From contig CP075494.1 of the NCBI GenBank assembly GCA_021613535.1, positions 744,001 through 808,000 of the forward strand: a DNA stretch of 64,000 nucleotides. Reading direction: 5' to 3'. Both the position numbers and the translations under genes were made by a program. The stretch comes from Adineta vaga (taxonomy: Eukaryota > Animalia > Rotifera). Numbering within the stretch: the first letter of the stretch is position 1; every line of letters begins with the position of its first letter. Below are positions 9,908 to 37,511 of the stretch, piece after piece. Below the pieces are notes generated by a model, which saw only the letters and a program-made list of their open reading frames with translations, had not been told where the DNA came from and did not search any database.

Positions 9908-9920
9908 GCTCTACTTTAAA

Positions 9921-14524: not shown

Positions 14525-15565
14525 TTTCTTGGATCAAACGCTTCACTGGTTTTCGGATCCGAGAGAACATCGAAGTATTTGCGGTTGTTTAATCTATGTT
14601 TTCTGTGAATTCGTGTGAGGTATCAAATTCCTATCAGGATCTATGATTATCACATCATCATCAGTGGTATATTGTCAAGTTTGAATTTGATTCTCATGAT
14701 GTTTCCATGTTTGTTTTTCAACCTGAACTTTCCAATTTCGAGTTCCAATTCTAGATAACAATGTACCGAAAATCCATTTAATTTTGTTTTGAGAATTTCG
14801 AAAATCCCGAACAATGACTGGGTCACCAGGATGAAAATCACGTTGTCGAGTTTTACGATCAAAATTTCTTTGATAACGTTCTCTATTTTAATGGTTGAAT
14901 CAACTGCTGTAGGACGTAATAAATCCAACACAGTTGGTAGTTGTCGTTTTAAAAATAATTCAGCTGGTGAAACATTTGTTGTAGCATGTGGAGTTGATCG
15001 ATATGAGAATAAAAATTTATTCAGTACTTCAGATAATTTTCCACCATCAGCCATACTTTTAGTAAGTGCTGATTTGACTGTTTCAACATAGCGTTCAGCT
15101 TGTCCATTTGATTGAGGATGTCCAGGCGATGTTCGTATGTGACGTAAACCATGACGTGCACAAAATTGAACAAATTCATCAGATGTGAATTGTGTGCCAT
15201 TGTCTGAAACAATCTCTTCGCATAATCCATAATGAGCAAATAGAGCTAAAAGTGCATCAATAGTTGAGGTTGTTGTTATGTTATTCATCACAATGACTTC
15301 CAGCCATTTTGAATGAGCATCAACAACAATCAAATAATAGTAGTTTAGAAAATTTCCCATAAAATCAATATGAATTCTTTGCCATGGTAATTCTGGTACT
15401 GGCCATTGTTGTAAGGGAACTTTTGGTGGTTGTTTTGAATTCTCACCATATATCTGACATTGAGCAGCAAGATCTTCAATATCTTTGTCGAGTGAAGGCC
15501 ACCAAAAATATCTTCTTGCATCAGCTTTCATTCGACCCATACCTGAATGAGTTGAATGTAGATCA
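14525..15565 (-). pseudogene. Gypsy integrase remnant (zinc-binding region, rve core, C-terminus), frameshifted near 14890 and 5'-truncated
   Basis: 'LHSTHSGMGRMK...FWWP', 'PWQRIHIDF', 'IVSDNGTQFTS', 'HPQSNGQAER', 'YRSTPH'; tail 'RIRKPVKRLIQE'. Confidence 0.9.
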
Positions 15566-15628
15566 ATAGAAAACTTGAATTTAAATAGTTTTATTATACT
15601 AGTTTTATAATTACATTAAGTGAAATGA

Positions 15629-15667
15629 ACTAGAGCTTTCAGCACATCAAGTGCCATCGTCAGTAGT
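15629..15667 (-). ncRNA. Minimal type-I hammerhead ribozyme, inverted copy
   Basis: Reverse complement reads ACTA-CTGACGA-TGGCAC(ttgat)GTGCT-GAAA-GCTC-TAGT. Confidence 0.8.
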
Positions 15668-16502
15668 TTGAATACTGTTATGATGATGTTACAGCGAGTG
15701 ATAGTGAACTATATTTGATTATCACTGAATATGAAATACAAATAATAACAAATGATAGAATAATATCCAGAGTATTTTGATTTATCTAGTCATTATATTT
15801 AATCTAGGTTTTGTAGTCCAGCCTCGAAAGTATAGATGTTATCGTGTATGATGATATATTCAGTGTGTCTCTTTATTGGATATAGATATCGGTGGTCTGG
15901 AAGATGATGATATCGGTGATATCTTTTTGGTTATCTTTGTTATAAGTAGAATACTTTACCTTGTTCAATTGTTAATTTGATGATATATCTGGTTAGATAT
16001 ATGTTCGATGTATAATTTCCGAGTGATCTAGGTCTTTTGTCATTAGTATAAATAGTGTGAAGATTTTGCTTGATAGTCACTGGTGTGTTTATTTGCTTAC
16101 AAGCAAGTGTTTAGTTTTATCTACGCTTTTCAACTTCGACTTCGGTATCTATTGTTTTAGGTAAGTGATCATTTTCTGTGAGAGAGATTATAGTTTTATT
16201 GAGTTTTAAAAAGATAAAAACCCTCCCTCTTCCCACCAGTTCATGACACCGATAGTATGTACATCCATCCGCTACGATTATTCGATAGTGCGATGATGTT
16301 ATATGTGATGTATATATAGATAGTATTTTTTTTCTTTCGTTCCTGTCGTTATATATATATATATATGGAGAATGTATGACTATATACGAGAGACACCTAT
16401 TGGAAGAAAGAAAACGAATGAGTTTTAAAATTGTTGGGCTTAATTGAAGTTTAAATAGCTAATTAATAGCATCTTACAAGGCTTGTTTATTTTCATTGTT
16501 TG

Positions 16503-19127
16503 CCTGTTGTTATCAGCAAGTATGGAATTGGAAACAACTGATAATCGTTTAAATACATTTATGATCAACATTTGTCCTTTATCAACTAAAACAAGATTTA
16601 AGTTCATCAAGGAAAATTATGGCTATAATATCTACAAATTATATCAATCGTATGAAAACACAACTATTAAACTTGTTCGTCTCTACAGTGATTTAAATTA
16701 TTTACAGTAATGTAGATGGAATAATGTTGTGCCAAAATTTCTTCGCTTTAAATTGGCAAATCCAGAATTGGCAAATCCAAGATGTTATTGGAAATGCCAA
16801 ATTCTTTTTCTAAAAGAAGAAATTAATTCGAAGAAACACAAGATCAAATATATGTCAGGAATACAAGAAAATTTATACAATGAATTACTTAATACTTTTC
16901 GTGCCTCGATATTGAAAAAACTTAATGATATTGTTAATGAACTTCAATCCAAGGAGAATATGTTGAAGTATCGTACTCATCGTAGAAAATTTAATAAATT
17001 AATTAATCATCGATTTATGGAACAACAACAGGAAGCGGATCAACGTCGTTTATTAAGTGATCATCCAATGAATCAGTTGATAAACGACAACAGTAAATAA
17101 TGACAATAATGAAGCGCAACCCAGAATAGTTTGGAATTTATCTGATCGTCAACTGACTGCAGATGAACTGCATCTTTTGGAAAATGGGCTGTCGTACAAT
17201 CGTCTTCGTACAATTGTTCGTTCTGAAGTAATTTCCAATGTTGAACTTTTATTCTTTCAGTCATCTGGTATCAAAAGAGAAACAACTGATTTTCAAAAGT
17301 GGGATCAAGATCCTGATAATGGTTTCAACAAGGAAATTAGAAGTTTAGAACCAAGACAATTATCTCTTGTAGCTGATTTAAAGAGTGTTACACAAAAATT
17401 CTTCAATGAAGCTCAAGGATCAATTAGAAGGAACAAAAACTTCAATCAATCGTATGAAGATCAATTATTATCAGAATTGTCCAAAGATCCGTCCATCGTT
17501 ATCACCAAACTTGATAAAGGCAGAGGTGTTGTTATAATGAATCGTGCTGATTATATTCAAAAATTAGAACAAATCGTAAGTGATCGTTCAAAATTTCAAT
17601 TGCTTGATAAAGATCCAACTGGTACTCGTGAAACTGCATTAACATCTCTTTTGAGACAAATCAAAAAAGAAGAATACTTGACTGAGCAGGAGTATCAATA
17701 TGTTAAACCAGTTGGCTTAATTCCAGCAAGATTATATGGCTTACCAAAAGTCCACAAAGATAATGTACCACTTAGGCCGATTGTATCTTGTATACAATCA
17801 TACAATTATCGTCTAGGTAAATTCTTAGCTGGAGTTATCAAGCCAATACGTAACAGTACATATTCATTAAAGAACAGCGATGTATTTATGAAGTTTTTAC
17901 AAGAAAACCGTTCATTATCAATTCACAAAATGATTAGTTTTGATGTTGAAAGTTTATTTACTAATATACCAGCGGACAGAACAATTCATATTATACGTGA
18001 GAAATTATATTGGACTGATCCAATATTAAAACCATACATACCGGAACATTACCTTCGCGAACTTCTGGAATATGCTACAAAATGGACCCATTTTCTCTTC
18101 AACGGCAATTATTATGATCAGCGTGATGGGGTTTCAATGGGTACATCATTGGCAGCAATTTTTGCAGAAGTATTTATGGCAGATTTTGAAGAACAACATA
18201 TATCACGCTTATTAACTAATGGTTCGCAACGATTGGCATGGCGTCGTTATGTAGACGATACATTCGTCATTTACAATGCTGATGTAGACAAAGGTGGTGT
18301 AGACAAAGATGACCTTCATCAATTATTGAACAATTTTGATTCATGCATTAAGTTTACTGTTGAACCAGGAGTCGATAATCCTATACCATTTCTTGATGTA
18401 TTAGTGAAACGACATAATACTGGTTTTGAAACAACAGTATACAGGAAGAAGACAACAACAAAATTAATGTCGAAATGGGGCAGCTTGATTCCAACATCTT
18501 ATAAAAGATCATCTGTCTATGCATTAGTTAATCGAGCGATTCGATTATGTTCAAAATTTGAACTCTTGCATAATGAATTTATTTACATTCGTTCAATGGC
18601 AGCTTTCAATGGTTATCCATCGAAATTTGTACAAAATATTATTAATAAACAACTTGACAAATTCTACCAACCAAGACAGACAACTGATTTGATACAACCA
18701 ACAACAAATCAAACAAATACATATAAATATATACAAATTCCATTTATTGGCACTCCAAGTTACAAATACGGGAAAAGACTCAAATCCATCATCACACAAT
18801 ATAATCCAAGAACAGACGTCAGAGTGGTATATACAACAATACCAAAATCCAGTTGATTTTGTATGTTACAAACCTAACTCTGCATTGGGAAAGCATGCAT
18901 TTAAAACTGGACATTCAATCAATTTTACTGATGTGCATATTTTGAAGCAAGATCAAGCACCATACAGACTGTTGATCAAAGAATCAATTCAAATACGTTT
19001 CAAACAACCGAAGCTCAATGGTACTGATACTTCTGTTCCACTTTACGTCTTTCCCGAAGGGATAAGAATAAAACTAATCAATAATCTATCTAATTGTGGA
19101 TTTTATAGCATTCTTCACCAAAACTAA
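16503..19127 (+). pseudogene. Penelope RT/GIY-YIG ORF disabled by stops, frameshifts and loss of the GIY-YIG core
   Basis: 'PKFLRFK', 'DKGRGVVIM', 'LYGLPKVHK..VPLRPIVS', 'SFDVESLFTNIP', 'GVSMG', 'WRRYVDD', 'PFLDV', 'VYRK'; endonuclease tail 'SALGKH..GH..IKES.I..PKLN' without the GIY/YIG motifs. Confidence 0.88.
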
Positions 19128-19462
19128 ATCAACAACACAATACTCAACATCTACTCAACTAATTTCACCATCATCATATTATTTAAAAAGTAAGCATGAA
19201 AATATACGATAATTTACATTACCCTCTTCCTTTTCAGTATTCTTCACTATACATTACTTACCTGCAAAATCATCAGCAACTAACAAATCAACTTCATCAT
19301 CTTCAACTTATACGTAAAGTATCCTATCAATTATTAATTATCCTAACTATACATCTTCACTTTAGCAATCTCAACATTACATTCAATTACTTCATTAACT
19401 TTAAACATTCATTTACTAATCACATATTAAATTATTTACTTAAAAACATACCCAATGATATT

Positions 19463-19501
19463 ACTACTGACGATGGCACTTTATGTGCTGAAAGCTCTAG
19501 T
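19463..19501 (+). ncRNA. Minimal type-I hammerhead ribozyme in the Penelope end
   Basis: ACTA-CTGACGA-TGGCAC(tttat)GTGCT-GAAA-GCTC-TAGT; palindromic AGCT stem III. Confidence 0.8.
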
Positions 19502-19909
19502 TCATTTCACTTAATGTAATTATAAAACTAGTATAATAAAACTATTTAAATTCAAGTTTTCTATTGATTTTATCAAGACCTATTATATTTTGTCACTAAA
19601 GACTATGTAGTTTATTGATTTGTTATTGTATACGTAGATTAGTTTAGATTGTAGATATAAATAAAATTGATTTCAAAAAAATGTTTTATTTTGTGATATT
19701 GATCTGCCGGACGATCAATTATACAAAATGCGTGTCCAGTACATGAGCGACTGCCGCAATAAGAAAATACTGAATGGTATCTATCTATACTAGAATATTA
19801 GATTTTGAGACTTTTATTCGTAAATTTTCTATCGTTCTCAATCAATGCTTGAACTAAATCAATGAGTAGTGTAGAAATCGTTAATTCGATTCGAGTATCA
19901 AACTTCTTC

Positions 19910-20221
19910 TTCAACTTCTAAATTTATAAGTTTATAGTTCGAGTACTCGAGTTTTAAACTATTCAACTTCTAAATTTATAGGTTTATAATTCGAGTACTC
20001 GAGTTTTAAACTATTCAACTTCTAAATTTATAAGTTTATAATTCGAGTACTCGAGTTTTAAACTATTCAACTTCTAAACTTATAAAGTTATAGTTCGAGT
20101 ACTCGAGTTTTAAACTATTCAACTTCTAAATTTATAAGTTTATAGTTCGAGTACTCGAGTTTTAAACTATTCAACTTCTAAACTTATAAGTTTATAATTC
20201 GAGTACTCGAGTTTTAAACTG
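19910..20221 (+). repeat. Left terminal array: 6 x 52 bp
   Basis: Unit TTCAACTTCTAAATTTATAAGTTTATAGTTCGAGTACTCGAGTTTTAAACTA, containing the palindrome TCGAGTACTCGA. Confidence 0.95.
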
Positions 20222-20269
20222 TTCAGCTCGAAAAAAGCTGGCTAGGTGAAACCATGATTGAGCACTTCG

Positions 20270-21030
20270 CTTCTACCCCTGCACACTCACTTGGGCTGTT
20301 CCCTTGCAACACCCACACCCTCACTTTGCTCGTCGCCTCACAGCACTAACTCCCGCAGCCTCACTTTGCTTGTTCCCTTGCAACACCCACCACCGCACCC
20401 ACACTTTGCTCGTCGCCTTACAGCACTTATCCCCGCACCCTCACTTTGCTTGTTCGCGTGCAACACCCACCCCCACACCCTCACTTTGCTCGTCGGGTTA
20501 GAACACCTACCTCCGCACCCACACTTTGCTCGTCGTCTCACAGCACTTACCCCCGCACCCTCACTTTGCTTGTTCGCGTGCAACACCCACCCCCACACCC
20601 TCACTTTGCTCGTCGGGTTACAACACCTACCTCCGCACCCACACTTTGCTCGTCGCCTTACAGCACTTACCCCCGCACCCTCACTTTGCTTGTTCCCGTG
20701 CAACACCCACTCTCACACCCTCACTTTGCTCGTCGGGTTACAACACCCACCTCCGCACCCACACTTTGCTCGTCGCCTCACAGCACTTACCCCCGCACCC
20801 TCACTTTGCTTGTTCCCGTGCAACACCCACTCCCACACCCTCACTTTGCTCGTCGGGTTACAACACCCACCTCCGCACCCACACTTTGCTCGTCGCCTCA
20901 CAGCACTTACCCCCGCACCCTCACTTTGCTTGTTCCCGTGCAACACCCACCCCCACACCCTCACTTTGCTCGTCGGGTTACAACATCCACCCGTGCACCC
21001 ACACTTTGCCCGCCCGCTTACAACTCCCAC
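20270..21030 (+). repeat. C-rich subterminal minisatellite: 40-bp monomers organised as a 120-bp higher-order repeat
   Basis: Cyclic monomers CAACACCCACCCCCACACCCTCACTTTGCTCGTCGGGTTA / CAACACCYACCTCCGCACCCACACTTTGCTCGTCGCCTYA / CAGCACTTACCCCCGCACCCTCACTTTGCTTGTTCSCGTG. Confidence 0.95.
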
Positions 21031-22127
21031 ATCGTTTTGTCGTTGTTGAGTCTTGTGTAGGGTGGTTTCTCTTTTGACTTCCGTGCTCTGTTTTTTTTTA
21101 ACTGGGAGTTTGTGCTAAATGAAGGAGAGATGAGCTGACCGAGCCGTTAGTTCTGGAAAGCCAGATCCGTATCTGTTTGGTTTTCATAAGATGAGTGATA
21201 ACAAGTTATATCTCAGAAGAATAGGAAATTGTGCTGTGTGCTGATACTTGCTATAGTATGTTTCCTGAATAGGGGTTCCGTTGATTTAGCACTTGGATTG
21301 GTTGTTCTCGAATACAGTCTAATGGTTATCTTTGTCGGTTGATTCGTTGGATTAAGAATCGAGAAGAAAAGGAAAGAAAGAAATAGAGGGGATATATGTA
21401 TAGCACGCTGAATCAATAATAGATGAACATAAATAAAATAGAGGGATAGCTGTTGAAACAAGATGTGACACGTGTATAAGTTGTGATGGATAGCGTTAGC
21501 AACGGACGTATAATCAAGTGGTATGAGTTTATAATATAGACTTAAACATTTTGAACGACATTTAACAGTATATGCCCTTGTTTACGATCTGTTGGTAGTA
21601 CTTTCAATTAAAAGAACGTATCTTGATTACGTTACGAATACGACTCTACAAAAATACGAATCCATGTGAATGGAATACAAATGATGAAGTAACTTTTCGC
21701 TATTCTTTGATATGTCGATCTCTTTTATTTATTATTTTGATACTGAATATTCCAGCAAATCGGCAACGAGATTTTGTTATTAGTTTTGGTTTTTGTTGTG
21801 GATAAGAACATCAAAGATTTGTATCATTTTTTTTCATGGATGAAGCCATATGAACAAACATGTCGGCAAGATGTTGTTTATTTGTGTCAGTGGGAAGAAT
21901 GACATATTAAGGCGAAAGCGCATGTATGATGCAACTTTTCATAGTCAATTAAGTGTTATATAATTGCGTTTCACACACCCTCCAGAATATGTGAATAAAT
22001 TAAACTGAATTTTGATTCGTTCTTCTGATGAAAGCTTTTATATAAATAGCTCATTTCGTACAACATTTCTGTATAAAATTCATTTTTTATCCAATTCATT
22101 CGTCCAATTCTTTGCTTATCAGAAATC

Positions 22128-22540
22128 ATGACTTTATTTTCTCACATGTCTTTCATAATTTTGTTCGGTTTCGTCTTAATGACCGATGAATATATGATTG
22201 TATCTCATAATATAACAGGTACCTTGATAAAAATTTTGTTTACGATCTTATTGATTTTTTTTATTTTGAAGCAACATCGTCTTCTGTAATATTTCCAATG
22301 GGACCGAGCACTCGTTCCCAGGGAAAGTTACGGATACGTTATTGGGCTAATCAGACGGCTACGACAACTACCTTAAATTCGAAAACTATTGATGATGCTA
22401 TCGCATTATATTTAAGTAAGAACCAAATGGTGTCTCATGTGGACGACCGCAAATTATATGTTGAAAAAGCTCAGTCTAATACAATTAACATCAATTGGAT
22501 AATGTTTGCCTTATATATGACGTTCGTCCTGTTTTACTAA
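22128..22540 (+). CDS. Small (~119 aa) two-exon secreted or membrane-anchored glycoprotein inside the element
   Basis: Exon 22128-22218 (MTLFSHMSFIILFGFVLM...), GT-AG intron 22219-22271, in-frame join to ORF 22298-22540; sequons NIT and NQT; hydrophobic C-terminus; TATA-like TATATAAA at ~22039. Confidence 0.6.
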
Positions 22541-24827
22541 AAGTAATCTTTCTCCTTTATACTAATGCTGTTGTATATACAAATATTTTTGCACATACAA
22601 GTTTTTGTACACATTAATGTCAGATAAAAAGGTTTTCTTATTCTTAAAATAGCGTAAAATGAAATATCAATTATGCCGGACTATTTGGTTGTATTTCATC
22701 AAAATAAATTTATCAACGTCATAGAGTGTAATCTGTTCATAAATGATATAAAAACATAATCAAACTGTTTAAATATTTTAATTTTGTAGACATAGCGTTA
22801 TCGTGTCATATAGAGAGCAAGATATGGCGTGAATAGATCAAGGAAGCGACTATGTAAACATATGATCATATGATCACTTTCATAAATCAAACAGTTTTTT
22901 TAAAATAAATGAGAAAGATCAAGAAGATATATAGAAACAATTGTCTTCAAATACTCACATATACATTAACAATGGGAAGTTTATCCTTTATCGTGTGTAC
23001 ATTGCATATAAGAAGCGAATTCAATCTAAATTCAATTGAATTATATCGCATAAAAATGAAAAAAAAGAACTAACGTAATAATCTTTGTAATTTATTTTTA
23101 GTCTTTTCTATTATCGTGGAACACGACGATACAGAGAAATAAACTGAGTTTATTTGAATTGTATCTCTTCTAAGAAATAAATTTTACTTTTTTAATCTTA
23201 GGAATATGCGAATATACAGCAACTGATTTGTTTTTATTCATATATTTTTTTTTCGAAAATAATTTTCGATCTTTTTTTATCTCGAGGCATATGGACATTA
23301 AATCATCAGAAAAGTTATTTTTTTCGAAAACAAATATAATTTTTTTCGGACTATTTTCGGTATATATGAATATAGACAGACAATTGTCAAAATTATATTT
23401 GTTCATCTTTTCCTCTTTAATTTTGTATATTTTAACAGCTCTCAAGAGTATGTGTATATATGGATGTACATGTTCCACCTTTTCGTTTTATATATTCTTT
23501 TCCGATGTAAAAAATAATCGGTATAATCCGATTTTAAAGAATTGCTAAATTTCGCCTATTTCAATGAATTAATTTTGATTATCAATCCGATTAAAAATTG
23601 ATTATAATAGTGCTATTTTAATTCATTTTTAATGAAAAAATATTCGAATAGAATTGATCTGTTTCATCTATTTCGTTCACATGGTAAGCCTTTATTCTGT
23701 TATAATCTATTGTTTGCTGCTCATCTATTCTAATCAGTTGCTATCATCAATTCATTTTCACGTATATTACCTGTTAGTCCATTGTAATCAGTTATTATCT
23801 GTTAATATATTTTCATCATACATACCAAAGATATTTGCTTTTCTCAGGATTTGAGCACGAAACCAATAGTTTCACCTGATTATTTAGATTCCTTATATCT
23901 ACTTATCAGTAGACTAAATCTCCACATTAATATAAAAGTTAAAACCTCTGTACATATTTTTTCAAATTTCTCTGGTGCAGTTACATAATTAATCGATTGA
24001 AATCGATTGCAAATGGAATGATTTTAATAGAACTTTTCACTTTAACATATATTTCAATACATTTATTTCAATATTCATTAAAATTAATTAAGAATGGAAT
24101 GATTTTAATCAAAATTATGTGACCAAATTAATTAAAATCAGTTTTTTGAGAGAAAATCGTGCACAAACGATTATGTAAAGAAAAAAAAATCAAATTTTGT
24201 TGTTTTAATCGTCTTTTGTAGATTTCTGTTAGAAGCAGCTGATTTTAATTTAATAATATATAGTGCATTTTTTTACATGGAAGCCCCGCTCGTCTTTATT
24301 TGTTCTTCTATTTCTCTTTCTCTACAATAATCAGCAAAATATGTTTTCGCAGTATCAAGCGCATTTCATGTTTGATTTATATATTTGCATCTATTTTTTT
24401 ATTTTAATGGAAAGCTTTTATTTCTTTTAAATTAATTAAATTGACTCTATATAAGTTTCGACTCATTGATGTAAAGATTAAGATTTTGATAATGCATTGC
24501 TTCTATAATTGATGGAGTTTGTTATGATGTAGTTACGAACACAAAAAGCAATTACAACTTGTATATATATATATATACATAGATGAGAACTTGTGGGATG
24601 AGTGGAAATTGTGATTAGTGCATTTAACAACTATTGACGACGAAAAAAAGAACAAATTATACAAAAAATTCTACGGATTAATGATAAGAAATAAACAAAA
24701 ACAATTATCTACGTATGTACAACAAGAATTAGGCTGCTGTATTATATTGCTATACACATTTAAACGACTAATCGAAAGAAAAAAGGAAAATTTTTGCTTG
24801 CCCATAAATCGAGTTAGTCTATTTTTT

Positions 24828-27146
24828 CTACATATTATCGTTAAATACGCTTTTATCTTCCTCAAAAAAAGATCCTGATGTTTTATCTGACTGATTCATT
24901 GCTGTTATAGCTTCTTTTTGAAAAGAGATATCTGGACGTATAGAGGCGCTTGATTCACGAATAAAATTACTCGGATGAAAGTTATGCGAGGCACTCTGTG
25001 TATAATTCAGTTGATTTCCAACAGCAGGAACATCATACGCTATAATACTAGAGTGCTGATTATGAAATTTTAATTTCATATTCTCATCTCGATGATAATT
25101 AGGTGGTAAAATATAATTAACGCAGCGTGAAGGAATACTCAGTCTTTCAAGAAACGAATTTGATCGATTTCGAGGAATAATAGGTGGTGGTACCTGTCTT
25201 GCAGCATCACCAACATTAGTTTTATACTCAGTTAAAACAGTATTTAACCTAGTGTCTGTGCTAGAAGTTATCGGCTTCGCTGATTTTTCATAGCACCAGA
25301 ATAATTTTAGTAGAGAGCGTTTGAAATAACATTTACAAAACACGTAGATCGTAAAAATCAGTAGAGTGGCAACGGCAAAAATAATCAGAAAAAACGTCAA
25401 CGACCATTTCGATTGAATCACATTCGATACATTTTGTCGAAATTGATTAAATCCATCTTCCCGAAGTCGTTCTTCTATGCCTATTTCTTTCAATAAAGCA
25501 CTTATATTAAGTGAAGGTCTCAAAGTCAAAATATCTGACTGTGCTTCGTTTACTGATTCTCCGAGACGATATGGAGCAATAGATTTTTTCATCGAAAGGA
25601 TGTAAACATTTTCATCTCTACAGACATCTGATCGAAGATCGAATTTGCCGCACGATACGTAGGAGTTACATTTTGTTCTGATAATGCTAACCTTATTAAT
25701 ATTTGTCCAAAGATTTTCTTTCTTATCATTCTTTTCTAAACATTGTAATTTCGAATCAGTCGAAATAGCAAATATATCTGGTGCTAAACGGATACTTTGA
25801 GGCGAAAATAAATCTATTTCATCCTTCGTACATTCTGAAGTATTTGTATTAAATACAATACTTCGAATACAAGGATTCTGAATTTGGCTATATACTGGAG
25901 TAGGAACGGCACAAAACAGAAATTTGGAGCGCTCATCAAACGTGCAACGTCGATGGTCGTGGTTTTCCCATTCCGAAGAATATCCATCCGGACTCAACGT
26001 AAAGTACGTTGGTATGTGAGAGCTTTGTGCCGCTCTCGTCGATGTGATAAAGAAAGGTAGTTTTGTGACTTTATAAAGATCACTCTTTCTCTGCCTGCTA
26101 TTTATTGGACGTCCAAAGATATTTTCGACTCTTAAATGGCCAACAATCTTTGGAATAATTTCGTCAAGATCCACTGTTTGATTTAATTTTTCAAACTTAG
26201 GATCGACACTAACATCAAATTGAAAATCATCTTCAGTCAATTCGTAAGAAATATTCTTCTCATTGACAGAAGTAAATGATAATATTTGATGGACAAGAAG
26301 TTTTGGTATGAAAGCACTTAGAGATGCTCCAAAATCCTCCGGTAAAAGTGTTTTTACAGCTTCATACACGAAATTATATGTAATGGAACGTTGTTCTGCA
26401 GTCAAGAAGTCAAGATTCAATTTATGCTCTTCGATTTTAGTTATTGAATGTACGATTTTATCATAATGATTGCGCATTTCCTGAAGTATCGCATGCTTTG
26501 CGAAAGAGTCGTACTCATTTCGAAAAGCAATTACTTGTCGAATATGCTGATATAGATACTGACGAGTAGCATTTGCGTCATCATAAACATCTTTAAAGGA
26601 TTTTAAAATAGCTAACTGATTATTCTGAAGTGACGCAATAGCGGTATTCATTATCTCGTTCAAGGCAATTTGATGTCCCCGAAAATTCTCTACATCCTCT
26701 AATCTATGCGCTAGTTGTAAGTTACTGGGGCCCAGTAGATCCCCGACAATACGATACAACGTGTAGGCAACTCCACTAACTGCTATTCCTTCTATTACTT
26801 GTCGTTTTGTTCGACTTTTAGCATGGTCTTCCGCGACTTCCTTCAATCGCAGAACATCGCTGTTTTTCAGAAGAAGAGCTCTATATTCTATGCATGTTTC
26901 TAAGGCATAAGCCATTCGAATTGGAAGAACATCGCACAGAAACTGAAAAACAGGTATCTCGGTAATATAATTGATCGAACCATCAATTTGTGAATAACTA
27001 CCTATATACTGCCAAACGGTATTTGTCTCAATATGATGTACTAAAGTATTGTTTTTTACATTATCTAAGAATGCACTCTGAGCATTTACAACAGCAAATA
27101 TGCCAAAAAAGCTTAATGTGACGACGTAAAGCCCTTTAATAGGCAT
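24828..27146 (-). CDS. Class-I viral fusion (env/F-like) glycoprotein, 772 aa, intronless
   Basis: Signal peptide, furin site RTKR followed by a hydrophobic fusion peptide (QVIEGIAVSGVAYTLYRIVGDLLG), heptad region, Cys-rich ectodomain, TM helix WSLTFFLIIFAVATLLIFTIYVF, juxtamembrane Cys, long tail. Confidence 0.85.
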   Translation of the reverse strand: MPIKGLYVVTLSFFGIFAVVNAQSAFLDNVKNNTLVHHIETNTVWQYIGSYSQIDGSINYITEIPVFQFLCDVLPIRMAYALETCIEYRALLLKNSDVLRLKEVAEDHAKSRTKRQVIEGIAVSGVAYTLYRIVGDLLGPSNLQLAHRLEDVENFRGHQIALNEIMNTAIASLQNNQLAILKSFKDVYDDANATRQYLYQHIRQVIAFRNEYDSFAKHAILQEMRNHYDKIVHSITKIEEHKLNLDFLTAEQRSITYNFVYEAVKTLLPEDFGASLSAFIPKLLVHQILSFTSVNEKNISYELTEDDFQFDVSVDPKFEKLNQTVDLDEIIPKIVGHLRVENIFGRPINSRQRKSDLYKVTKLPFFITSTRAAQSSHIPTYFTLSPDGYSSEWENHDHRRCTFDERSKFLFCAVPTPVYSQIQNPCIRSIVFNTNTSECTKDEIDLFSPQSIRLAPDIFAISTDSKLQCLEKNDKKENLWTNINKVSIIRTKCNSYVSCGKFDLRSDVCRDENVYILSMKKSIAPYRLGESVNEAQSDILTLRPSLNISALLKEIGIEERLREDGFNQFRQNVSNVIQSKWSLTFFLIIFAVATLLIFTIYVFCKCYFKRSLLKLFWCYEKSAKPITSSTDTRLNTVLTEYKTNVGDAARQVPPPIIPRNRSNSFLERLSIPSRCVNYILPPNYHRDENMKLKFHNQHSSIIAYDVPAVGNQLNYTQSASHNFHPSNFIRESSASIRPDISFQKEAITAMNQSDKTSGSFFEEDKSVFNDNM

Positions 27147-28360
27147 GTTCGTTCAATTTCTGATCTGAACAGATCTAACAAGAAGCTATGGACAAGCAAA
27201 TATAGAATGAAGTACAAGGATCAAAAGAATAGGATAGAAAATCAAGTAGGAATACGAAAAATAAAGAGTATTTCTGTAATTATTTTGTGAAGAAGCAAAG
27301 ACAGTATATGAGAAAAATTGTAAAATATATCAGACTTTTGTTGAACTTGAAAAATTAGCCGTTTTTGGAATGATTCAAATATGTGAGTGTCCGTAAAAAT
27401 GTAAGGATGCGACCACACGATAGACGATTAAATAATATTGAATAAAGCAGATAGCTGTTATGGCGTGAAGTTTACACTATATGCGAGAGAAAATAGTCCG
27501 AAAAGAAATATAAAGGAGAGAAAAGATAAAAAATGTCTCCCTTTCATATTCGCGGCAGCGTAACATCATGCATCAGTGAAGCATGACAATCTGTCATATA
27601 TTTATTAGATAAAAGTGGAGATGAATTGTATTAGATGAAAAGCTGATTATGAACGATCGATTATTATCTTGTTTTTATAGTAAAGGTATTAAGCAGTGGG
27701 ATATTGACAAACACTTCTGTATGTATCTGAGAAATTGGTTTAAAAGGATATAACGCTTATATTTTTCAAAGTGTGAAGAGATATTTATCAAGAATAAATC
27801 ATTGTCACGTTTTCAATCTTGTTGTTTCAACTTGGGCGACTAAACTATTTCATTAACATGAATAATTTTAAGATACCAGTATCAAACCATAACCAATTAT
27901 TTCAGGTGCATTGAATGGTAATAATCCAAATAATCCAGTATCTTTCCTTATCCTTATAAAAATTCTCGGATTTCACGAACATATTTCAGTATCATATAGA
28001 TTCTTCTTGATTTAATTATTGTTCGTTTAAACTCGTTCTTTTATGTTTGTCAATACTGTACATTTTGATTTTTTATATATTTAATTATTAACTTAGTACT
28101 GTTACGCTGTTGATTGACTATTACATAAACAATTAGAAAAAATATTAACAAAATAAGTATATATTTTTCGCAGAAAAATGTATTCAATTATATTTTTCAA
28201 ATTTATTTCAGTTATATTAACAAAAGCTTATTGATACAGTGAGAAGAAAAGTATGTGATACAGAAAAAACATGTATATATTTACTTCTAATAGAGATAAA
28301 GTTTATGTATATAGTAGTAGCAGTACTCAATTCGTTTGGATACAAAAGGCATATCACAAC

Positions 28361-29170
28361 TTATTGTCTCTCCAAAAATTGGCGAACACACTGTTCTATT
28401 ATACGTGATCCCTCGTAAGTTGGATGTAAATTATCATCGCTTATATGATATCGAGTGAGACGTGGATCGATAGTCTGAAAATTTAATCTATGCGACAGCT
28501 CTAATAGCATTATGTTACATTTATCAATCTCCTGTAGAACTCTAACTCCACTAGACAAATAACGCGTACCTTTTATACGCCATTGCAAGAGCTGCCATGC
28601 TAGCTGCAGCCCCGGATATAGAAGACGAATGGCTTCAACAGTTTCTCTTATGCGATGGACAGTTTCTTCTGCGCACATCACATGAAGATCATTCGTTCCT
28701 AAAATAAGTATAATTCGACTTGCTCCACGCATCATTTCCTGACCTTCAATACTTCTCAACCAAGTGAGCATCTTAAAGCAATTACAACCACTCTCATAGG
28801 TAAGCTTTACTAAATCTTTTGTCGTTTGCAAGTTGTACTCAATCAAACGACTAGCTATAGATGAACCAGCTACTACAGTTATTGGTTTGTAAATTTGATG
28901 AAATATGTTTTCATATTTCCATGGAAAACAGTTCTGACTGGGAAAACTTGGATAAGTAAATTGTTCACACAATAATTTTTTGTTATATTTTTGTCGCCAA
29001 CGTTGTTGTTGTCGCCGTTTGTTCTTGGGTTTTTGCGATTTCTTTTGATGGTTTTTAGACATGACTTTATTGCATGTAATTGATTTAGAAGTTGATACAG
29101 GCTTCATTGTATATTGAGAAATTTGATTTGTAAATTGATTATTTATCAATGTGTTATATTGCAAATTCAA
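28361..29170 (-). CDS. SGNH/GDSL-type hydrolase with a basic N-terminal extension
   Basis: Block I 'VAGSSIA', block III 'ILILGTNDL', block V 'DDNLHP'; K/R/Q-rich N-terminus; likely ATG start at ~29107. Confidence 0.85.
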   Translation of the reverse strand: MNLQYNTLINNQFTNQISQYTMKPVSTSKSITCNKVMSKNHQKKSQKPKNKRRQQQRWRQKYNKKLLCEQFTYPSFPSQNCFPWKYENIFHQIYKPITVVAGSSIASRLIEYNLQTTKDLVKLTYESGCNCFKMLTWLRSIEGQEMMRGASRIILILGTNDLHVMCAEETVHRIRETVEAIRLLYPGLQLAWQLLQWRIKGTRYLSSGVRVLQEIDKCNIMLLELSHRLNFQTIDPRLTRYHISDDNLHPTYEGSRIIEQCVRQFLERQ

Positions 29171-31505
29171 ATATTGATATGATATTTTGGGTAAAAAAAC
29201 CTTTTGAGTTATTTGTAATAATGTATTTGAAGAAAATAATCTACTATAATGTGTAATTTTCTTATATGTTTTTCAATGCCGATATGTCGTTAATTCTCTC
29301 CTTTTCTCTCTCTTTCTCTCCCCCCTCTTTGTTAACTTCATGTGAAAAATATCTTCCTTATGTTGCATGATGTGATTGGTTAATTGACTGAAGTGAATAG
29401 AGAAATCAATTTCAACTGAACACTTGGCGTGAAAAATATACATATAGCAATAATGAATGTTCATATAATGTACGATCTTCCGATTTATTTGATAAAGACG
29501 AACATACCCTTTTAGTTTTCAAACAGAAGTGGGTAAAATATCGAGCGAAAAATGAAATAATTTACGTGCATTTCGTCAATCTTTGACATTTAGTTTTCAT
29601 CAAATCAAAAAAATTATCTTAAAAGTATTATTTATTGAAAATATAACAAGATATTGGTCCATATTTATAAAAAAACAGCAGAATTTTTTTTTGGAGAGAA
29701 TGAGAAGTTTTTTGTTGATCACACTCGAGTATATCAATCCGGTTGATGATTACGATACGCTTTAATTGAAAAATACTTGTTTTCCTTGATTTGTTTTTAC
29801 ATACGCTAGTCAAATTTAATGAACGGGAGTATCCAATCAAGATACTCCAATGCTTTCTGAATAATCATATTGAATCGAATTAGTTGTCAAAATTTCATTG
29901 TGAACAATGATTAAAACAATATCACTCGTTGTGGACTAATTTCAGTATTAAGAATATGACGATTGATATTTCGATAAATAATATTATAAATCGATCGTAG
30001 TACACAGATTTGTAAACTAACCAGCCACTAAGATGATGATCATCGTTATCCTTTATAACATACCTTCTAAGCTATTTATATTTGTTATTCATATATTATA
30101 AAAATTTATTCACTTCAAAACGATCGATCATCGATGATCAGATATAAATATATACTAGAGCAAGACAGCTCAACTCAAAAGGGTATCCAAGTTGTCGATT
30201 CAATTCATTGGAAAAAATGCATTACGATGCAATTTATTTCAACTCAAAAAATGAATTAAATTGAATCTAGTTGATTTTCTCAGCTCTGATATAAACATGT
30301 GATTTTTCAGTGAAATGAAAACTATTTTTCTTAAGTTTAATTGTGTTTACAATAACGATTCTATATAGGAGAATGATACTGAACAACCTGAAAACTTAAT
30401 AACATATTTTTGATGGATCATGAAACATATCATTGGTATTTGGTATAATACACTGGAAAGAAACTGGAAATTTGTTCACATTCGATATGAAGAGGACTAA
30501 ACTGTTTTATTCATCAACATCGAATTCTCATAAGCTTTCTAAATTTCAAAAATTGAAGATAAAACGTGAAAAGGACCGTTTGCATTACAATATATTTTTA
30601 TGATTAAATGGTAGTTTTGTTGTCTCATTTATCTATTATTTGTCAATTGTGTGCCGCTTTCGGCGAAAACATCATTATAAATTGCAATAGTTAAAAGAAA
30701 GTTATATTATTTTCATACATTACACATCATGTATAAAAGAAAAAAGAGTTTTGCAATTTCTTATTGTTGAACATATTCCTCTTAAGAATTCATACAATAA
30801 TACTATTTCAACTAATATTGTAATTAGAATTGAATATAACATCTTCTGCTCTACTCTCATATACGTATAGTATACTCATTCTAATTTTATCTGAGAAAAT
30901 TTATTGAGAATTACTTTGAGCATATGATTTATCATATTCTATTTATTTGTCTCTTGCAAATGCTATGGAGGATAGAGATGTGAAAGAAAAAAGTTATTGA
31001 CATCTATATTGATTTAATTTTATACATGTATTTTATTGATAATATTTTCATGTCTATATAGGCTGTTTACAAATGAGTGACAATATACGGAATGCGTATG
31101 TTGTTCGTATTTCAGGACAATATTGTTGATTAATGAATTATGCGAACCGATGATAAAATATGCAGTTGGTTGAAATTATCATAATCATTGTTAATAGGTA
31201 AAGATATATACAAATAATAATGCCTAGAATGAGAGAAAAAGAGGCAGCAACAACTAGATACAACAAAAATTCTATGGAAGATCTATAACTACACTAACTA
31301 CAGAAAATGACAGCAGATGTAGGAATGATACTTGAATTTTAACACTAAACTTATTAAAGTTAGTTAAATTCAATAGAAAAAAATCATCAAAATCAGCGCG
31401 GAATCATTTGTCATTTTTACACTACTTTTATTAAAGTTAAAATGCTACCCTTAAATTGAAGTCTATAAACGTTTTTTGAATATTTGTTTGTTAACTAAAT
31501 GATTT

Positions 31506-33269
31506 CTAATCTAGTGCCATAGAGAGCATTCTTTTTTCATATTTTTTTCGGATATTTGTCAACTTATTTGTATTGTATAAATCACATATTAAACAAATGT
31601 AAGTCAAGAATGTGGATTCATCGAAACCACGGACAATATTTTTATATTGTGCTAACCAACTGAAAATCTGTTCGCAAACTTCTGTGTTCGTTGAGTTAGC
31701 TATAGGATGTTTACGAGGATTTGTGTGTTTTCGACACCACGGATCTGTATGATTACGATAATGAAGTTTGTCGCAAAAAATTTCTAATCGAGATATTCTC
31801 TGATTAGCTGGAGTTTCTTCACTAAAATTATTTTTATTTTGAACGAAGCGTTTCAAATGACATGCATCATCATAGATTAAGACATCAGGAATATGTTCGC
31901 AATTTTTCATCATATAAACAAGAAAATTATATACTTGTTTAATGGATTCACTTCCGAAAAGTTCGGAAACACTGCAAATAAAGCCACAATTATAGACAGC
32001 AGCTATAATTCCTGATGTTCTATGAAGAATTTTTTTATATTGAAGTGATTTAAGGGTTTTACAACGTAGCGCGAACACTACTGGTCGACAATTTTTATTG
32101 TTTCTTAAGTTGTGCTGCTTTCGTTTGCAGTCTTTATGACTAACGGGATGTACGTCATCGTTATCGTTTCCAGTTTTGTGTGCTTCACACGTTTTACTCT
32201 TAAAAGCAGGTGTAGCTGAGCAGCCAACTTTTACGAATGGAAGAGAATCATCTTCGCATGGTATAGTCAAACTCTTAACTCTACAGACACGACGTGTTGC
32301 TTTTTGATGTCCATCTAGGACTACAGTGGCACAACAATTAGATCCGCAATATGCCTCATGAGTTTTACGTGCCCACTTTTGAGCAAACATTTTTTTCACA
32401 TCCGGTTGAATCTGCAATAGCAGAGATTGAAAATCTGTGCCCGTCGGTACTTGTATATAAATATTAACTTCACGGAAAAAGTGACCTAAACTCCAGATAA
32501 ACCATGTCTTTTCTATATGAAATCTATCCATAAGTCGAGTGTCGCTAGAACCACTTTTTTGACACATAAAATTATATGCATTTACAAAGTTTGAGAATCC
32601 ACAATGCTTGAACAAAATATCAGCATCAAGTTGATGGAGTATATTTTTTTCGTAACCAATATTGGAAAAGAGGACAACGACTTCTGCTTTCTCTTCTATG
32701 TGTAGAAATTTTGTTCCGTTTTGCTGAACGATGTAGTTATAGTGATATTTAGCCTTACACGAAGGGCACAATTTATAGAATAAAGTACCTTTCTCAGATT
32801 CTTTACCCCAACGAAAAATACTGACATCTTGATAAGGGCATGGAGAATTTAGTGCTGTTCTGTTACATGCTGTGTTAACACAGTTTGTAATTGTCGGAAT
32901 ATAACTATGTAACAACGAGACAACATGATTTTGCTTATTTTGTTTGCAATAATTTTTTATCGCATTATCAATTTCATGGTCTAGTTTTCCAGCAATTTCA
33001 TCCTTTATCATAGGTAAAATGATGTTCCAATTAGCAAGGCGCACATCAATTTGAGTTGCAGTATATGCAGACTGATACAAACTATTCAAAATTGCAGTAA
33101 TGTGCTGAACACGATTTGGAACATTTTTATCTATACGAACATCTAATCGACGCAATGTGGTTGCTATTTCAATATTCGGTAATGGTTGGAATAGCTCGAA
33201 TGGATTACGAAGTGCAAAAGTCATTCTTTTTCTTTTTATTGCTTCTTGTGTACGATTACTATTCTTCAA
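31506..33269 (-). CDS. KDZ-superfamily (Kyakuja-Dileera-Zisupton) transposase with CxC5/CxC6-like Cys clusters
   Basis: 'CPSCKAKYHYNY', 'VVLDGHQK..RRVC', 'YNCG....ELFGSES..QV', 'YDDACHL', 'DKLHYRNH....C', 'NTEVCEQIFSWL'; uninterrupted ORF; first ATG at 33224. Confidence 0.85.
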   Translation of the reverse strand: MKNSNRTQEAIKRKRMTFALRNPFELFQPLPNIEIATTLRRLDVRIDKNVPNRVQHITAILNSLYQSAYTATQIDVRLANWNIILPMIKDEIAGKLDHEIDNAIKNYCKQNKQNHVVSLLHSYIPTITNCVNTACNRTALNSPCPYQDVSIFRWGKESEKGTLFYKLCPSCKAKYHYNYIVQQNGTKFLHIEEKAEVVVLFSNIGYEKNILHQLDADILFKHCGFSNFVNAYNFMCQKSGSSDTRLMDRFHIEKTWFIWSLGHFFREVNIYIQVPTGTDFQSLLLQIQPDVKKMFAQKWARKTHEAYCGSNCCATVVLDGHQKATRRVCRVKSLTIPCEDDSLPFVKVGCSATPAFKSKTCEAHKTGNDNDDVHPVSHKDCKRKQHNLRNNKNCRPVVFALRCKTLKSLQYKKILHRTSGIIAAVYNCGFICSVSELFGSESIKQVYNFLVYMMKNCEHIPDVLIYDDACHLKRFVQNKNNFSEETPANQRISRLEIFCDKLHYRNHTDPWCRKHTNPRKHPIANSTNTEVCEQIFSWLAQYKNIVRGFDESTFLTYICLICDLYNTNKLTNIRKKYEKRMLSMALD

Positions 33270-33869
33270 ATAGATAACACTTAAACTACAATATAAATTC
33301 TTATGATGCAGATCTGTTTCACGATATCTATTAAAATGAAATAACTTGCCTAGGTACAGATCAATGAATTAATAACGAACACAAACTGAGCCGACGACGA
33401 ACGAATAACCAAGTGATATGATAATGAACGATGATAAACGATAAAGTAAAGTACATTATACTTTTTTTCTTTTTGCTAGCGGGTACAAGTGTCAATAGCA
33501 ATCATTCTAAGCTTTTTTGATGAGCTATCTGATCATTCAACCGTTGTTTCACATCATATGTATAGAGAAAACATAATGGTCAGTGAAACTCAATCAAACA
33601 CTTACATATAATAATACCCTGTCATCTTGCTTTTATGAGACTTGCTTAAGGCTATTACACGATGAATATTTTATAAAATCATAGGATAAAAAGTCAATAT
33701 CTCTTAATCATTCATCCGTATAATAAGAAAAGAGAAAAGAACGAAATGTTGAAAAGAAAGAAAGACAATAGACATGTTTCATTTATATTTCACTTTCTCT
33801 AAAGTTATCATATCAATCATTTCAAACCGTATACTTATCTTCAACTTTCGCACTTTTTTTTTCAAACTA

Positions 33870-34130
33870 TTCATTGCTCTTCAATTTATAATTCATTTTT
33901 TCAATTTATTATTCGTTCTTCAATTTATAAATCATTTTTTCAATTTATTAGTTGTTATTCGATTAGTTACTCGTTTTTTTTTTCGATTTATCATTCGTTC
34001 TTCGATTTATAATTCATTTTTTCAATTTATTATTCGTTCTTCAATTTATAAATCAATTTTTCCAATCTATTAGTGGTTATTCGATTACTTACTCGTTTTT
34101 TTCAATTTATCATTCGTTCTTCGATTGATT
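33870..34130 (+). repeat. AT-rich degenerate direct repeats between the divergent transposase and helicase genes
   Basis: ~20-bp subunits (TTCAATTTATTATTCGTTC / TTCAATTTATAATTCATTTT) forming an approximately 125-bp duplication. Confidence 0.75.
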
Positions 34131-34385
34131 ACTTACTTTTTAATTCATAATCCATTTTTCTATCGCGAACTCAATCAATTCTTTTATCAATCTTATTCTT
34201 CATTATAAATATCCAAACCGTATTGAAAAATTTTCTGATCACAAAATTTCGCTCGTACTTGTGATATCGTACTGACACTTACGTTAATTAGCATCTGATA
34301 TCGTTTCAAGCAATATCATTCATCTCGTCAGTCTGCATTTTACGCTGGTTTAAATATATAAATTCTTAACATAAAATTTCCAATT

Positions 34386-37075
34386 ATGTCTTCAAAAGGT
34401 TTCACTACATATCAACTTCGTACCATCATGCGTAAGGCAGGAAATGAAGAAATGAACGTTGATGAAATTCTAGATGAATCAATTGCATCTGTCATAAAAA
34501 ATATCAGCAATTCTTCTCAACTACCTGTTGAATACTTACTTACCTTGCTGCTTCCTGCAGTTAGTCACCACATGAACGGATCGCAAGTTATTAGTAATAC
34601 CGGTCAAACGACCAACGTCGCATTTTATACTATCATAATTGGATATCCCGGCGCTAACAAGTCATCGGGAATAGAAAAAATAAAAGAAGCTTGTCTTATT
34701 ATTGAGCAATTTGAGGGTATTGATGACGATCACTCGAGAATAAATAATAGTGCTACTGTAGAATCGCTCTTGTCAGAACTAAAGAATACTCATTCACGAC
34801 TATTTCAGTTATGGGACGAAGCATTAACTCTGTTACAGTCGTTCGGTATGTATAAGAGTGGAGGAGCAGCATATGACAGATCGATTATGTGCTCCTTATA
34901 TAATACATCATCAACCGTTCGCCGACAGACAAAAGGTACAAGCATGACTATTCAGAGTCCTGTACTTAATATCACAGCAGCAGCCCATCCTGTTGACATT
35001 TTTGATTCAATGAGAGTCGATGGTGAAGCTGATGGTCTTCTTCTGTCTCGTTTTTTTCGCTGCACCGACGCCAAAAATTCTTCACTCTTTTGAGATTGAT
35101 CAACCTGATCCTGATCAGCCGAGTATATTGCATACTCTTTTCATAATCCATTGTTTTAACAGTGAGGAAGTAGGAAACGATGACGACTCGAAAGTGATGT
35201 ATTCTTTTTCACCAGAAGCTTTGAAAGTCTTGAATACAGCTTGGAATTCATATACTGACATTATCAAAGTTTCTTATGAGTTTGATAGTTTTATTGCTTC
35301 TATCTATTCGAAAGCTCGCGTTCAAATAATTCGGATAGCTGGAGCTCTACACGCTATGTCACTAGCAGCAGCCGTTTTCGATTGTTTAACATCAATAAAC
35401 AAAGTGCCTAATTACTTCGATAAATCAAAACAAACATTGAGTTTACTACGAGACGCAGTTGCTGAATTTAAAAAAAGATATAAGTGGCAAATAATATCTG
35501 AAAAGACTACTCTGGGATCTGTTTCGATGATGAACTATTATCTAAAACAGAAGAAAATATATGCAAATCGTAAGTACTTTTATCTTACAAAATCGTTTTT
35601 CATACTTGCATGATAGATTGTTTTTTTAACAAAACGTAGGAAAAAATAATAACATAGATTGTAGAACTAACCACATAAAAGTAACGTCGTGGAATGTTGT
35701 TGACGCTTAAGTCTAATATATGAACAGTTCAGCTCGTTGATGTTATCTTCAGACGAAACAACAAATAGATGATAATATAACACGTTTGAGAAGAGAACGA
35801 TCATATATTTAAAAAAAGCACAAATTTATAATGCTGCCGTACATATAAGAAAAGAAAAATGATATGTTTTCCAACAGTTACTAACCAGTAGCTCGAAGTA
35901 TTAAAAAACAGGAAAAGCAGTTTCATCACTTTTCTTTCTCTTTCTCTCATTACACTTGAGATATTTAAAATCTGTTAGGACGTTCCTTCACATAATATAA
36001 AACATGTGACTTATATTATTAACCTGTTTATTATAATACAATATTTCTTTAGGTAAAATCAACGAAACGGCGGAAGAGATGCTGGAACGATTTCAGAAAG
36101 AAGAAAAAATTGAAGCAGGTCTTCAATTTGAAAAGGAAGAAAAATTAGAAGCACGAAAAAGTAATCGTGAAAATAAACTTATGGAAACGACGACAGCTCG
36201 ATGTGCTGAACGATTAGTGCTTCTGACACCGGGTATTAAGGTACCATGGGCCGTGATTAGTCGTAATCATGGAGGATTCAAAATCAATGAACTTCATGAT
36301 GCTGCCAGAAAATTAGACAATGAAAAAATAGGTAAGTTGCTTTTCTTCCCTTCTCACATGCACTTTCAATTATTGTTTCGCAGGTAAACTCGTCAAAGAA
36401 AAGAAGCCGAATGCAAAAAGAGCAACCACTTATTTCATCAAGACGGTCATTGACGAAAATTGGGATATTGATACGTTAACTACGTTCACCAACAAACTAT
36501 CTCAATATTCTGTAAAACTAAAAGAATATGTTGACTCGTGCGTTCATCGAGATTTTCAAGACTTTCTCGAAGATCCAGAGGATAAAACTGATAAAGTGCG
36601 TAGAGCCAGTGATGTTGCTCCGCTTAGAGATAGTTCGCAAACAAACGATATATCGACCAATGTTACTTCTAAGGAAGGCATACCGATGTCATTTCGTAAC
36701 GTAGATTTTCAAATCGCAGGTGGTGGTTTTCTACTACAAAAACCATCAAATCCTAAATCTGCCGTTCAAACAACCACAACAACGGACAAACAGCACACAG
36801 TAGTTGATTGTAATCCTTCTATTCTAGCTGAGGAGTCACCACCGTTTTCTCAACAATCCCTACTCCAGGAAGAAAAAAATAATGACGAACATAATCAGCA
36901 ACAACCCTTATCGACTACCTTTTCATCTCCTTCACCTGCCTCTCCAGCTATTACAGACTTAAGACAATCCACACCAACTGAACGCACACCAAAACGAATT
37001 CGATTCGACTTAAATAATGACGACTCGAACCTAAACAAGTCACCTGCACCCATTTTCTCAACATTATTTTCTTAA
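34386..37075 (+). CDS. DUF3987/YfjI-like AAA+ helicase-type ATPase, spliced, with one frameshift in a T-run at ~35051
   Basis: Walker A 'IIGYPGANKS', Walker B 'QLWDE', sensor 'LNITAAAHP', Arg-finger-like 'DGLLLSRF'; introns ~35571-36052 and ~36332-36383; S/T/Q-rich tail with NLS-like PKRIR. Confidence 0.75.
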
Positions 37076-37511
37076 AGAAATGTTGCAATATCTGCTTATT
37101 TCATCAATAACCACTTCCTCATAATTTAACAAACACAACTCATATAGACAAAACATACTTCGCACACGATCATTCTATAATTATCTAATATTCGTCGTGT
37201 TCGCTTATTCATCTCATGCAACCGTCATAGTCGCTTCTTCTTCTCGTCCATCCGTCAGGTTCGCTCATTCATTACCTGTATCCGCCATGTTTACTTTTCA
37301 CCACTTCTCTATTTCTTCTTCATCATTTCTGTATTTCTTCTAAATAAATTGTTTACTAATCTAATACTATTCATAGTAATTGATGTGATACTTCAAATTT
37401 ATAATCTAAAGTTGAAATGTTAAATTTCATACTTGACAGTTCAAATCTGAAAGTGTAAAAGTTGTTAACCTTTATATTCGGAATCTCAGTTTTCAAAGTT
37501 CAAAAGTTCAG

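Follow-up and report, generated by a model that had tools for sequence, protein, structure and literature searches.

An F-type fusion glycoprotein gene as probable cargo of an 18.1-kb KDZ transposon in bdelloid rotifers

The F gene and its predicted product

The window (the whole 64,000-nucleotide stretch of Adineta vaga DNA analysed here) contains an element of approximately 18.1 kb that holds five genes of interest: an F-type class I fusion glycoprotein (F), a KDZ transposase, a DUF3987 ATPase-like gene, an SGNH/GDSL esterase, and a small spliced gene. The F frame (24828–27146, minus strand) encoded 772 aa with no interruption in the ORF listing, and was assigned from the ORF, its motifs, and its predicted fold. 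Residues 1–22 were hydrophobic, as predicted for a signal peptide, and a motif search located a furin-type site, RTKR, at residues 112–115 (26802–26813, minus strand), directly followed by a predicted fusion peptide (26727–26801, minus strand). The segment after the site was mildly hydrophobic (Kyte–Doolittle 1.2–1.3 over 19 residues), and the R-x-K-R site was present in all five aligned homologues that covered that position. A Cys-rich region (8 Cys within residues 401–509) and a transmembrane helix (residues 584–604; 25335–25397, minus strand; hydropathy 2.8) were followed by a cytoplasmic tail of 168 aa carrying PPNY at residue 681 as well as PPPIIPR. The heptad pattern was moderate (best a/d hydrophobic fractions of 0.55 and 0.67 in residues 140–240 and 540–584, respectively), and long helices were predicted in the structure where the heptads were only moderate. 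A first-pass annotation, made from the sequence alone, had described an intact, uninterrupted frame, a class I architecture, and a tail of approximately 165 aa with both proline motifs; the frame and the tail were as described, and the architecture was borne out by the signal peptide, RTKR, fusion peptide, Cys-rich region, and transmembrane helix. Among homologues, conservation was higher in the ectodomain than in the tail (92 vs. 68% and 75 vs. 38% identity). Short contigs from X17, one of four runs guessed to be RNA, lay inside F, and two further such runs (X18 and X20) gave short contigs a little downstream of the F, esterase, and KDZ stop codons, near AATAAA; these contigs are a hint of transcription.

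Pfam and PDB sequence searches assigned F to no family, and a profile search returned only weak coiled-coil matches (E 0.06 and above). The ectodomain and transmembrane helix were modelled as a monomer from an alignment of 28 sequences (mean pLDDT 69), and the model matched post-fusion RSV F (Foldseek E 1.6e-11), granulovirus F (E 2.5e-13), and baculovirus F together with chu-/lispi-like virus glycoproteins (E 1e-14 to 1e-9). In a structure search independent of Foldseek, the top 11 rows were all F proteins (Z 7.4–10.8), the best being NDV F (Z 10.8, rmsd 17.3, 333 aligned). The fold comparison suggested by the first-pass annotation thus led to RSV, paramyxovirus, and baculovirus F. At the level of the model, the fold class is established: the gene product is an F-type class I fusion protein, with fusion activity predicted. 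It has its fold and architecture in common with pneumovirus, paramyxovirus, and baculovirus F, whereas its identity to viral F proteins was about 10–14%, so that no viral donor can be named, and the TM-scores were low (0.3–0.45) because the monomer model mixes conformations. The named homologues came from the bdelloid rotifers Adineta, Rotaria, and Didymodactylos; in a quick tree of 22 F rows, some of them unlabelled, the Adineta and Rotaria proteins formed one clade (100), and the Didymodactylos protein was placed on a long branch.

The first-pass annotation had also proposed that the PPxY motif of the tail drives budding. PPNY is present here (25095–25106, minus strand), but a homologue scan found PPxY in none of the 71 other F records (many of them fragments or near-duplicates), among them the records with 92% and 75% ectodomain identity; this lack of conservation refutes the proposal. 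The 92%-identical F of Adineta ricciae has LSPD in place of PPNY, LPRY occurs at a different position in one tail fragment (P0022), and PPxY appeared by chance in 2.9% of shuffles of the tail. The same scan revealed a conserved C-terminal motif, SGSFFEED (24855–24878, minus strand), with FFEED-like motifs in 19 other F records (many near-duplicates), down to the 24%-identical Didymodactylos protein. The proline-arginine patch of the tail is conserved too. Judged from its sequence, the FFEED motif is likely a sorting or binding signal.

Ends, gene content, and surroundings of the element

The element containing F spans approximately 18.1 kb (19864–37989), because the ends derived from contigs fall at an 8-bp direct repeat, AAATCAAT, located at 19856–19863 on the left and at 37990–37997 on the right (chance about 0.0006–0.0015, allowing 9–25 offsets). 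The resulting target-site duplication (TSD) would be 7 bp if the A at 37990 is part of the element, and the exact ends are uncertain by 1–2 bases. At the right terminus (37944–37989), at least three contigs per run departed at 37990 into unlike flanks in each of four DNA runs, three of which were flagged as possible sources of the window DNA; further contigs, among the matches listed, departed at 37991 or 37993. The element is therefore multi-copy, with several insertions that have this right end in common. The left end was seen only indirectly, since reads were compared to stretches omitting the tandem arrays; a left-type end contig extended 46–48 letters beyond the array in all four DNA runs, corresponding to 19862–19864. 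The left terminus (19864–19909) is an imperfect inverted repeat of the right one, matching in register at 26 of 46 letters (57%; shuffle p 2e-5), compared with 23 and 20 at offsets of -8 and +8, respectively. Next to the termini lie 52-bp arrays of six copies on the left (19910–20228) and eight copies on the right (37496–37942), mutually inverted and 94–98% complementary. Repeat analysis also identified, within the left end, a GC-rich array of 40/120-bp tandem repeats (20312–21030), and the transposase and DUF3987 genes, which are arranged head to head, are separated by an AT-rich 39/121-bp array (33854–34160). Depth summed over the 52-bp unit was hundreds of times the flank depth. Several contigs had only the terminal 46–60 bases at 37944–37989 in common and then diverged inward, and therefore other families or short derivatives use that end.

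The transposase gene (31506–33224, minus strand) is an intact frame of 572 aa with KDZ and CxC5 domains (39.1 and 38.8 bits in Pfam, with cut-offs of 26.6 and 26.9; PF18758 and PF18718) and conserved acidic motifs. The P-loop ATPase-like gene of the DUF3987 family (34386–37075, plus strand; Pfam and tblastn) has three exons (to 35574, 36055–36342, and from 36383, according to tblastn of P0091 and P0100), and the window copy is frameshifted near 35050. Genes of this family keep P-loop-like and acidic motifs; the model was poor (pLDDT 38), with matches to its C-terminal winged-helix-like part at Z 5.7–7.2, and the PDB sequence search gave no match. The SGNH/GDSL esterase (28361–29107, minus strand) was recognised from Pfam (Lipase_GDSL_2, E 9e-5, under the curated cut-off) and from Atlas GDSL clusters (score 0.94). 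It retains catalytic-type motifs, its N-terminal arm is strongly basic (31 residues with 13 K/R but no D/E; pI 9.7), and its sole PDB match was a weak one (E 0.56) to 4C1B, an ‘ORF1-encoded protein’ that we take to be the ZfL2-1 ORF1p structure. The small gene (22128–22540, plus strand; contig joint, translation, and hydropathy) encodes 119 aa and has a GT..AG intron from about 22216/22219 to 22270/22271, as read from one contig of run X20. Its product is hydrophobic at both ends, as predicted for a signal peptide and a membrane or GPI anchor, and its exon 2 matched no Pfam family at the curated cut-off. Linkage of these last two genes, the esterase and the small gene, to F was seen only in the two near-identical copies described below.

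Within the element, no gag or pol frame was detected, nor any flanking direct repeats (LTRs). Apart from two AT-rich frames, there was no further ATG frame of at least 80 aa, and therefore no capsid, gag, pol, or polymerase was seen; likewise, no unassigned frame could encode PolB or a major capsid protein, although a heavily spliced gene would escape these scans. Rfam returned nothing in 19500–38500. The absence of a retroviral context and of a visible capsid gene, both remarked on in the first-pass annotation, therefore held, and it was the DNA-transposon context that had been overlooked. The fusogen, the second membrane protein, the phage-type ATPase (DUF3987 clusters include phage members), and the integrating enzyme nevertheless make a virus-like set, and no gene is assigned to approximately 10 kb of the element's 18 kb. 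An integrated enveloped DNA virus or satellite, whose capsid or core would be supplied in trans or by a gene too diverged or spliced, would account for this set. We consider this improbable in view of the frame scan, the lack of a polymerase, and the introns in DUF3987 and the small gene; moreover, the weak, exact-pattern scans of viral contigs confirmed no relative of F, KDZ, or DUF3987. No related loci were found in prokaryote genomes. The metagenome scan gave two loci, namely a disrupted F copy (L001) on a contig of 2 kb and a bacterial false positive (L002), which was rejected.

The element lies among other repeats and host genes. The first-pass annotation had called the neighbouring retroelements decayed, which does not extend to all neighbours: a DDE_Tnp_4 (PIF/ISL2EU-like) transposon at 9918–14527, with multi-exon HTH, DDE, and SWIM frames, has 824-bp TIRs that are 100% identical and looks recent. 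It is followed by a retroviral-type integrase fragment (14650–15540; rve and Integrase_H2C2) outside the KDZ element, with no matching LTRs seen, and by a Penelope-like element (15562–19568) recognised by motif, with no Pfam match and 106-bp inverted ends, which stops some 290 bp short of the KDZ element and contains an RT frame (17537–18856) and, in another frame, a GIY-YIG-like frame (18693–19127). Outside the right end, the element is adjoined by a broken short-chain dehydrogenase-like frame (38296–38686; by motif, no Pfam match), after which the depth rises again at 39040–39100, indicating that another repeat begins there. Further along are an intronless NAD_binding_4 (thioester-reductase-like) gene (43655–44716), of a kind often foreign in bdelloids, and exons of two ordinary host genes (55443–63431), one polycystin/PKD-like and one with NHL repeats.

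Linkage of F and the transposase across rotifer genera

Linkage outside the window was read from record metadata (contig sizes, accession order, and gene models) rather than from DNA. The window's own esterase and truncated DUF3987 are listed on a contig of 16.9 Mb. A contig of 18.1 Mb, labelled Adineta vaga, carries an identical F, an esterase identical at 247 of 248 positions, an unbroken DUF3987 of 717 residues, and a KDZ gene model, with DUF3987, KDZ, and GDSL under consecutive locus tags. We read this gene set as a probable second, recent insertion, though it may be the window's locus as represented in a different assembly. The F, KDZ, and DUF3987 of A. ricciae are 92, 90, and 94% identical to the window, respectively, and in the metadata of two assemblies, all three have a recorded contig size of 44,541 and ordered accessions; for an ENA F and KDZ, the recorded contig size is 43,819 in both cases. 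In Rotaria magnacalcarata, F and KDZ accessions were 3–18 apart in four record pairs, and gene models of R. socialis and D. carnosus join the N-terminal half of KDZ to F in a single prediction. The link between F and the transposase thus holds across genera, down to 24% F identity (Didymodactylos). The KDZ-to-F join of R. socialis (P0058 and P0010) recurs in several records and skips the C-terminal half of the transposase and the N-terminus of F, which reflects either a common gene-model error or a real internal deletion. P0050, considered as a diverged second transposase, was rejected, being a spliced gene model that matches the window sequence where aligned.

Among six non-self F matches, the two on contigs able to hold both genes were both linked, and the other four were on contigs of <5 kb. 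F and KDZ identities co-varied over seven linked pairs (Spearman 0.76; 35 of 5040 permutations), a correlation that is confounded by host kinship. A second KDZ and DUF3987 pair of A. ricciae (13.6-kb contig) and one KDZ and DUF3987 cluster of R. magnacalcarata had no F neighbour among the matches listed, and some F homologues on long contigs, namely P0008 and the P0027 cluster, had no KDZ partner among 25 matches; F may therefore be optional.

From the ends, the copies, and this linkage, F is very probably the cargo of an 18.1-kb KDZ cut-and-paste DNA transposon in bdelloid rotifers. The first-pass annotation had offered a domesticated cell-fusion protein as an alternative, that is, a syncytin-like host gene situated beside transposon genes by chance. 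F is indeed intact with a conserved ectodomain, rotifer tissues are largely syncytial, and no empty allele broke the right flank contig in the four DNA runs. This explanation is nonetheless highly unlikely, because F is the cargo of a multi-copy, TSD-bounded element, whose end joins several flanks; a near-identical second copy lies on another contig, and F stays with the transposase across genera. Chance could also have acted by nesting, F, together with the esterase, being the remnant of an LTR retrotransposon inside the KDZ element. Since F and GDSL proteins are known as ORF3 types of bdelloid LTR elements (PMC5408684, as far as its available text goes), such elements are a plausible source of both genes. 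A recent nesting is largely refuted, because the element contains no LTR, gag, or pol, and nesting by accident would neither be repeated in Didymodactylos nor track the transposase in identity; as an explanation of the locus, it ranks with domestication among the least probable. An ancient capture of F from an LTR element is possible and agrees with F as transposon cargo.

Proposed role of F and comparison with known systems

The best overall explanation, to which we assign a probability of roughly 0.6, is that F is a long-standing KDZ transposon cargo that likely aids passage from cell to cell by membrane fusion. A selfish element keeps a complete fusogen over such divergence, and for this reason F is likely used to reach other cells; on the evidence of sequence conservation, it probably serves the spread of the element. 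Envelope genes are what turn retrotransposons into infectious agents. F could instead be kept for a benefit to the host, such as preventing an F-bearing virus or retroelement (e.g., TelKA) from using its receptor, which would help the transposon indirectly without any part in its movement. Protective env genes are established, and related elements may be without F; on the other hand, receptor-blocking env genes often lose their fusion parts, whereas here the cleavage site, fusion peptide, transmembrane helix, and tail motif are all retained over 24–92% identity. A potential target does exist, in that bdelloid TelKA LTR elements carry an F-type env (PMC5408684, in the text available), but overall we regard a purely protective role as rather unlikely.

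If F does serve the movement of the transposon, the following course can be envisaged. By analogy with known families, the CxC5-KDZ enzyme would bind the subterminal 52-bp arrays, excise the element, and re-insert it with a 7–8-bp duplication, and F, synthesised as a type I membrane protein, would undergo furin cleavage at RTKR and be triggered to bring about membrane fusion. The excised copy might be bound by the DUF3987 ATPase, as a DNA motor, and by the basic SGNH esterase, as a membrane adaptor built like the membrane-binding LINE ORF1p esterases. It could then reach an F-bearing membrane and pass into another cell, carried inside a vesicle that lacks a capsid or else by direct fusion of the carrier cell with its neighbour; the sorting signal would be carried by the conserved FFEED motif of the tail, not by PPxY. 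In its fullest form, this would be an infectious KDZ element without capsid or polymerase, whose DNA travels in F-studded vesicles by means of the ATPase and the membrane-binding esterase, between cells and between rotifer lineages. We put this form forward tentatively and think it less likely than not to be correct in full; no mechanism is known for packaging 18 kb of DNA without a capsid. The capsid-less spread suggested by the first-pass annotation survives as a broader idea in which a KDZ transposon is the genome and PPxY plays no role. If true, the element would stand among DNA transposons as env-bearing retrotransposons do among retroelements, and it would be a candidate vehicle of gene transfer in bdelloids; a cut-and-paste element that has retained a class I fusogen in several rotifer genera, while showing no capsid, would represent a different route from transposon to virus-like agent. 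The host can be cultured and is noted for horizontal gene transfer, and near-identical element copies occur in one species, so that the crossing of cell and species borders by a DNA transposon becomes directly testable.

The individual genes have counterparts in other systems, which we compare on the basis of parts of the cited papers. F-type env genes are widespread in gypsy elements (PMC13524379), and GDSL esterases are common among bdelloid retroelements (PMC5408684). The env of TelKA and of F-type errantiviruses resembles the rotifer F in having a furin site, a fusion peptide, a coiled coil, a Cys set, and a transmembrane helix; by description, it is set apart by its association with gag, pol, and LTRs, which are lacking here, and by the length of about 600 aa given for TelKA env, in contrast to the 772 aa and 168-aa tail of the rotifer F. 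The esterases of LINE ORF1p attach to liposomes and contain arginine-rich motifs, and in ZfL2-1 ORF1p, a basic segment precedes the SGNH domain (PMC3905857), as in the esterase of the element; the latter differs in being a stand-alone gene of a DNA transposon with no coiled coil seen, and its PDB match, as noted, was weak.

Among DNA transposons, the only published fusogen-bearing case that we found is that of nematode Mavericks, which carry the gB-like fusogen MFUS-1 and also have capsids (10.1101/2022.07.12.499685, in the parts available). They parallel the KDZ element as DNA transposons that gained a viral fusogen, proposed there as a driver of horizontal transfer. They differ in carrying PolB, a retroviral-type integrase, major and minor capsid proteins, and a class III fusogen, whereas the present element has a class I F and a KDZ transposase with no capsid or polymerase seen, and does not show the Maverick/Polinton set of PolB, rve integrase, jelly-roll capsids, and packaging ATPase. 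The main text of a bdelloid transposon survey (PMC7943196) and the available text of a giant-transposon review (PMC6431247) mention no KDZ or Zisupton elements. Likewise, no KDZ or other capsid-less DNA transposon with F was found in the literature covered, which lay outside the original KDZ/Zisupton papers, Repbase, and supplements and consisted mostly of titles and abstract openings.

Described KDZ transposons combine a KDZ transposase carrying CxC5 with a 7–8-bp TSD and extra cargo (PMC12730594, PMC9297572, in part), as here, and the element has KDZ and CxC domains, a 7–8-bp TSD, and dispersed copies with common ends. The cargo reported in the parts covered is a TET/JBP dioxygenase (PMC12730594), as opposed to the F, SGNH esterase, DUF3987, and membrane protein of the present element. 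The TSD is 8 bp in Zisupton and Dileera and 7 bp in Kyakuja (PMC12730594). Kyakuja elements of the fungal type have CA..TG termini without TIRs, whereas here the right end is ..TG but the left is GA.., and inverted arrays are present. Zisupton proper has TIRs, an 8-bp TSD, and a multi-domain transposase of up to about 1400 aa (PMC9297572); compared with it, the TSD fits, the TIRs are imperfect, and the transposase has only 572 aa with CxC5 and KDZ only. Overall, the element appears to be new, a KDZ transposon that carries a viral-type envelope and is distinct from the described KDZ members.
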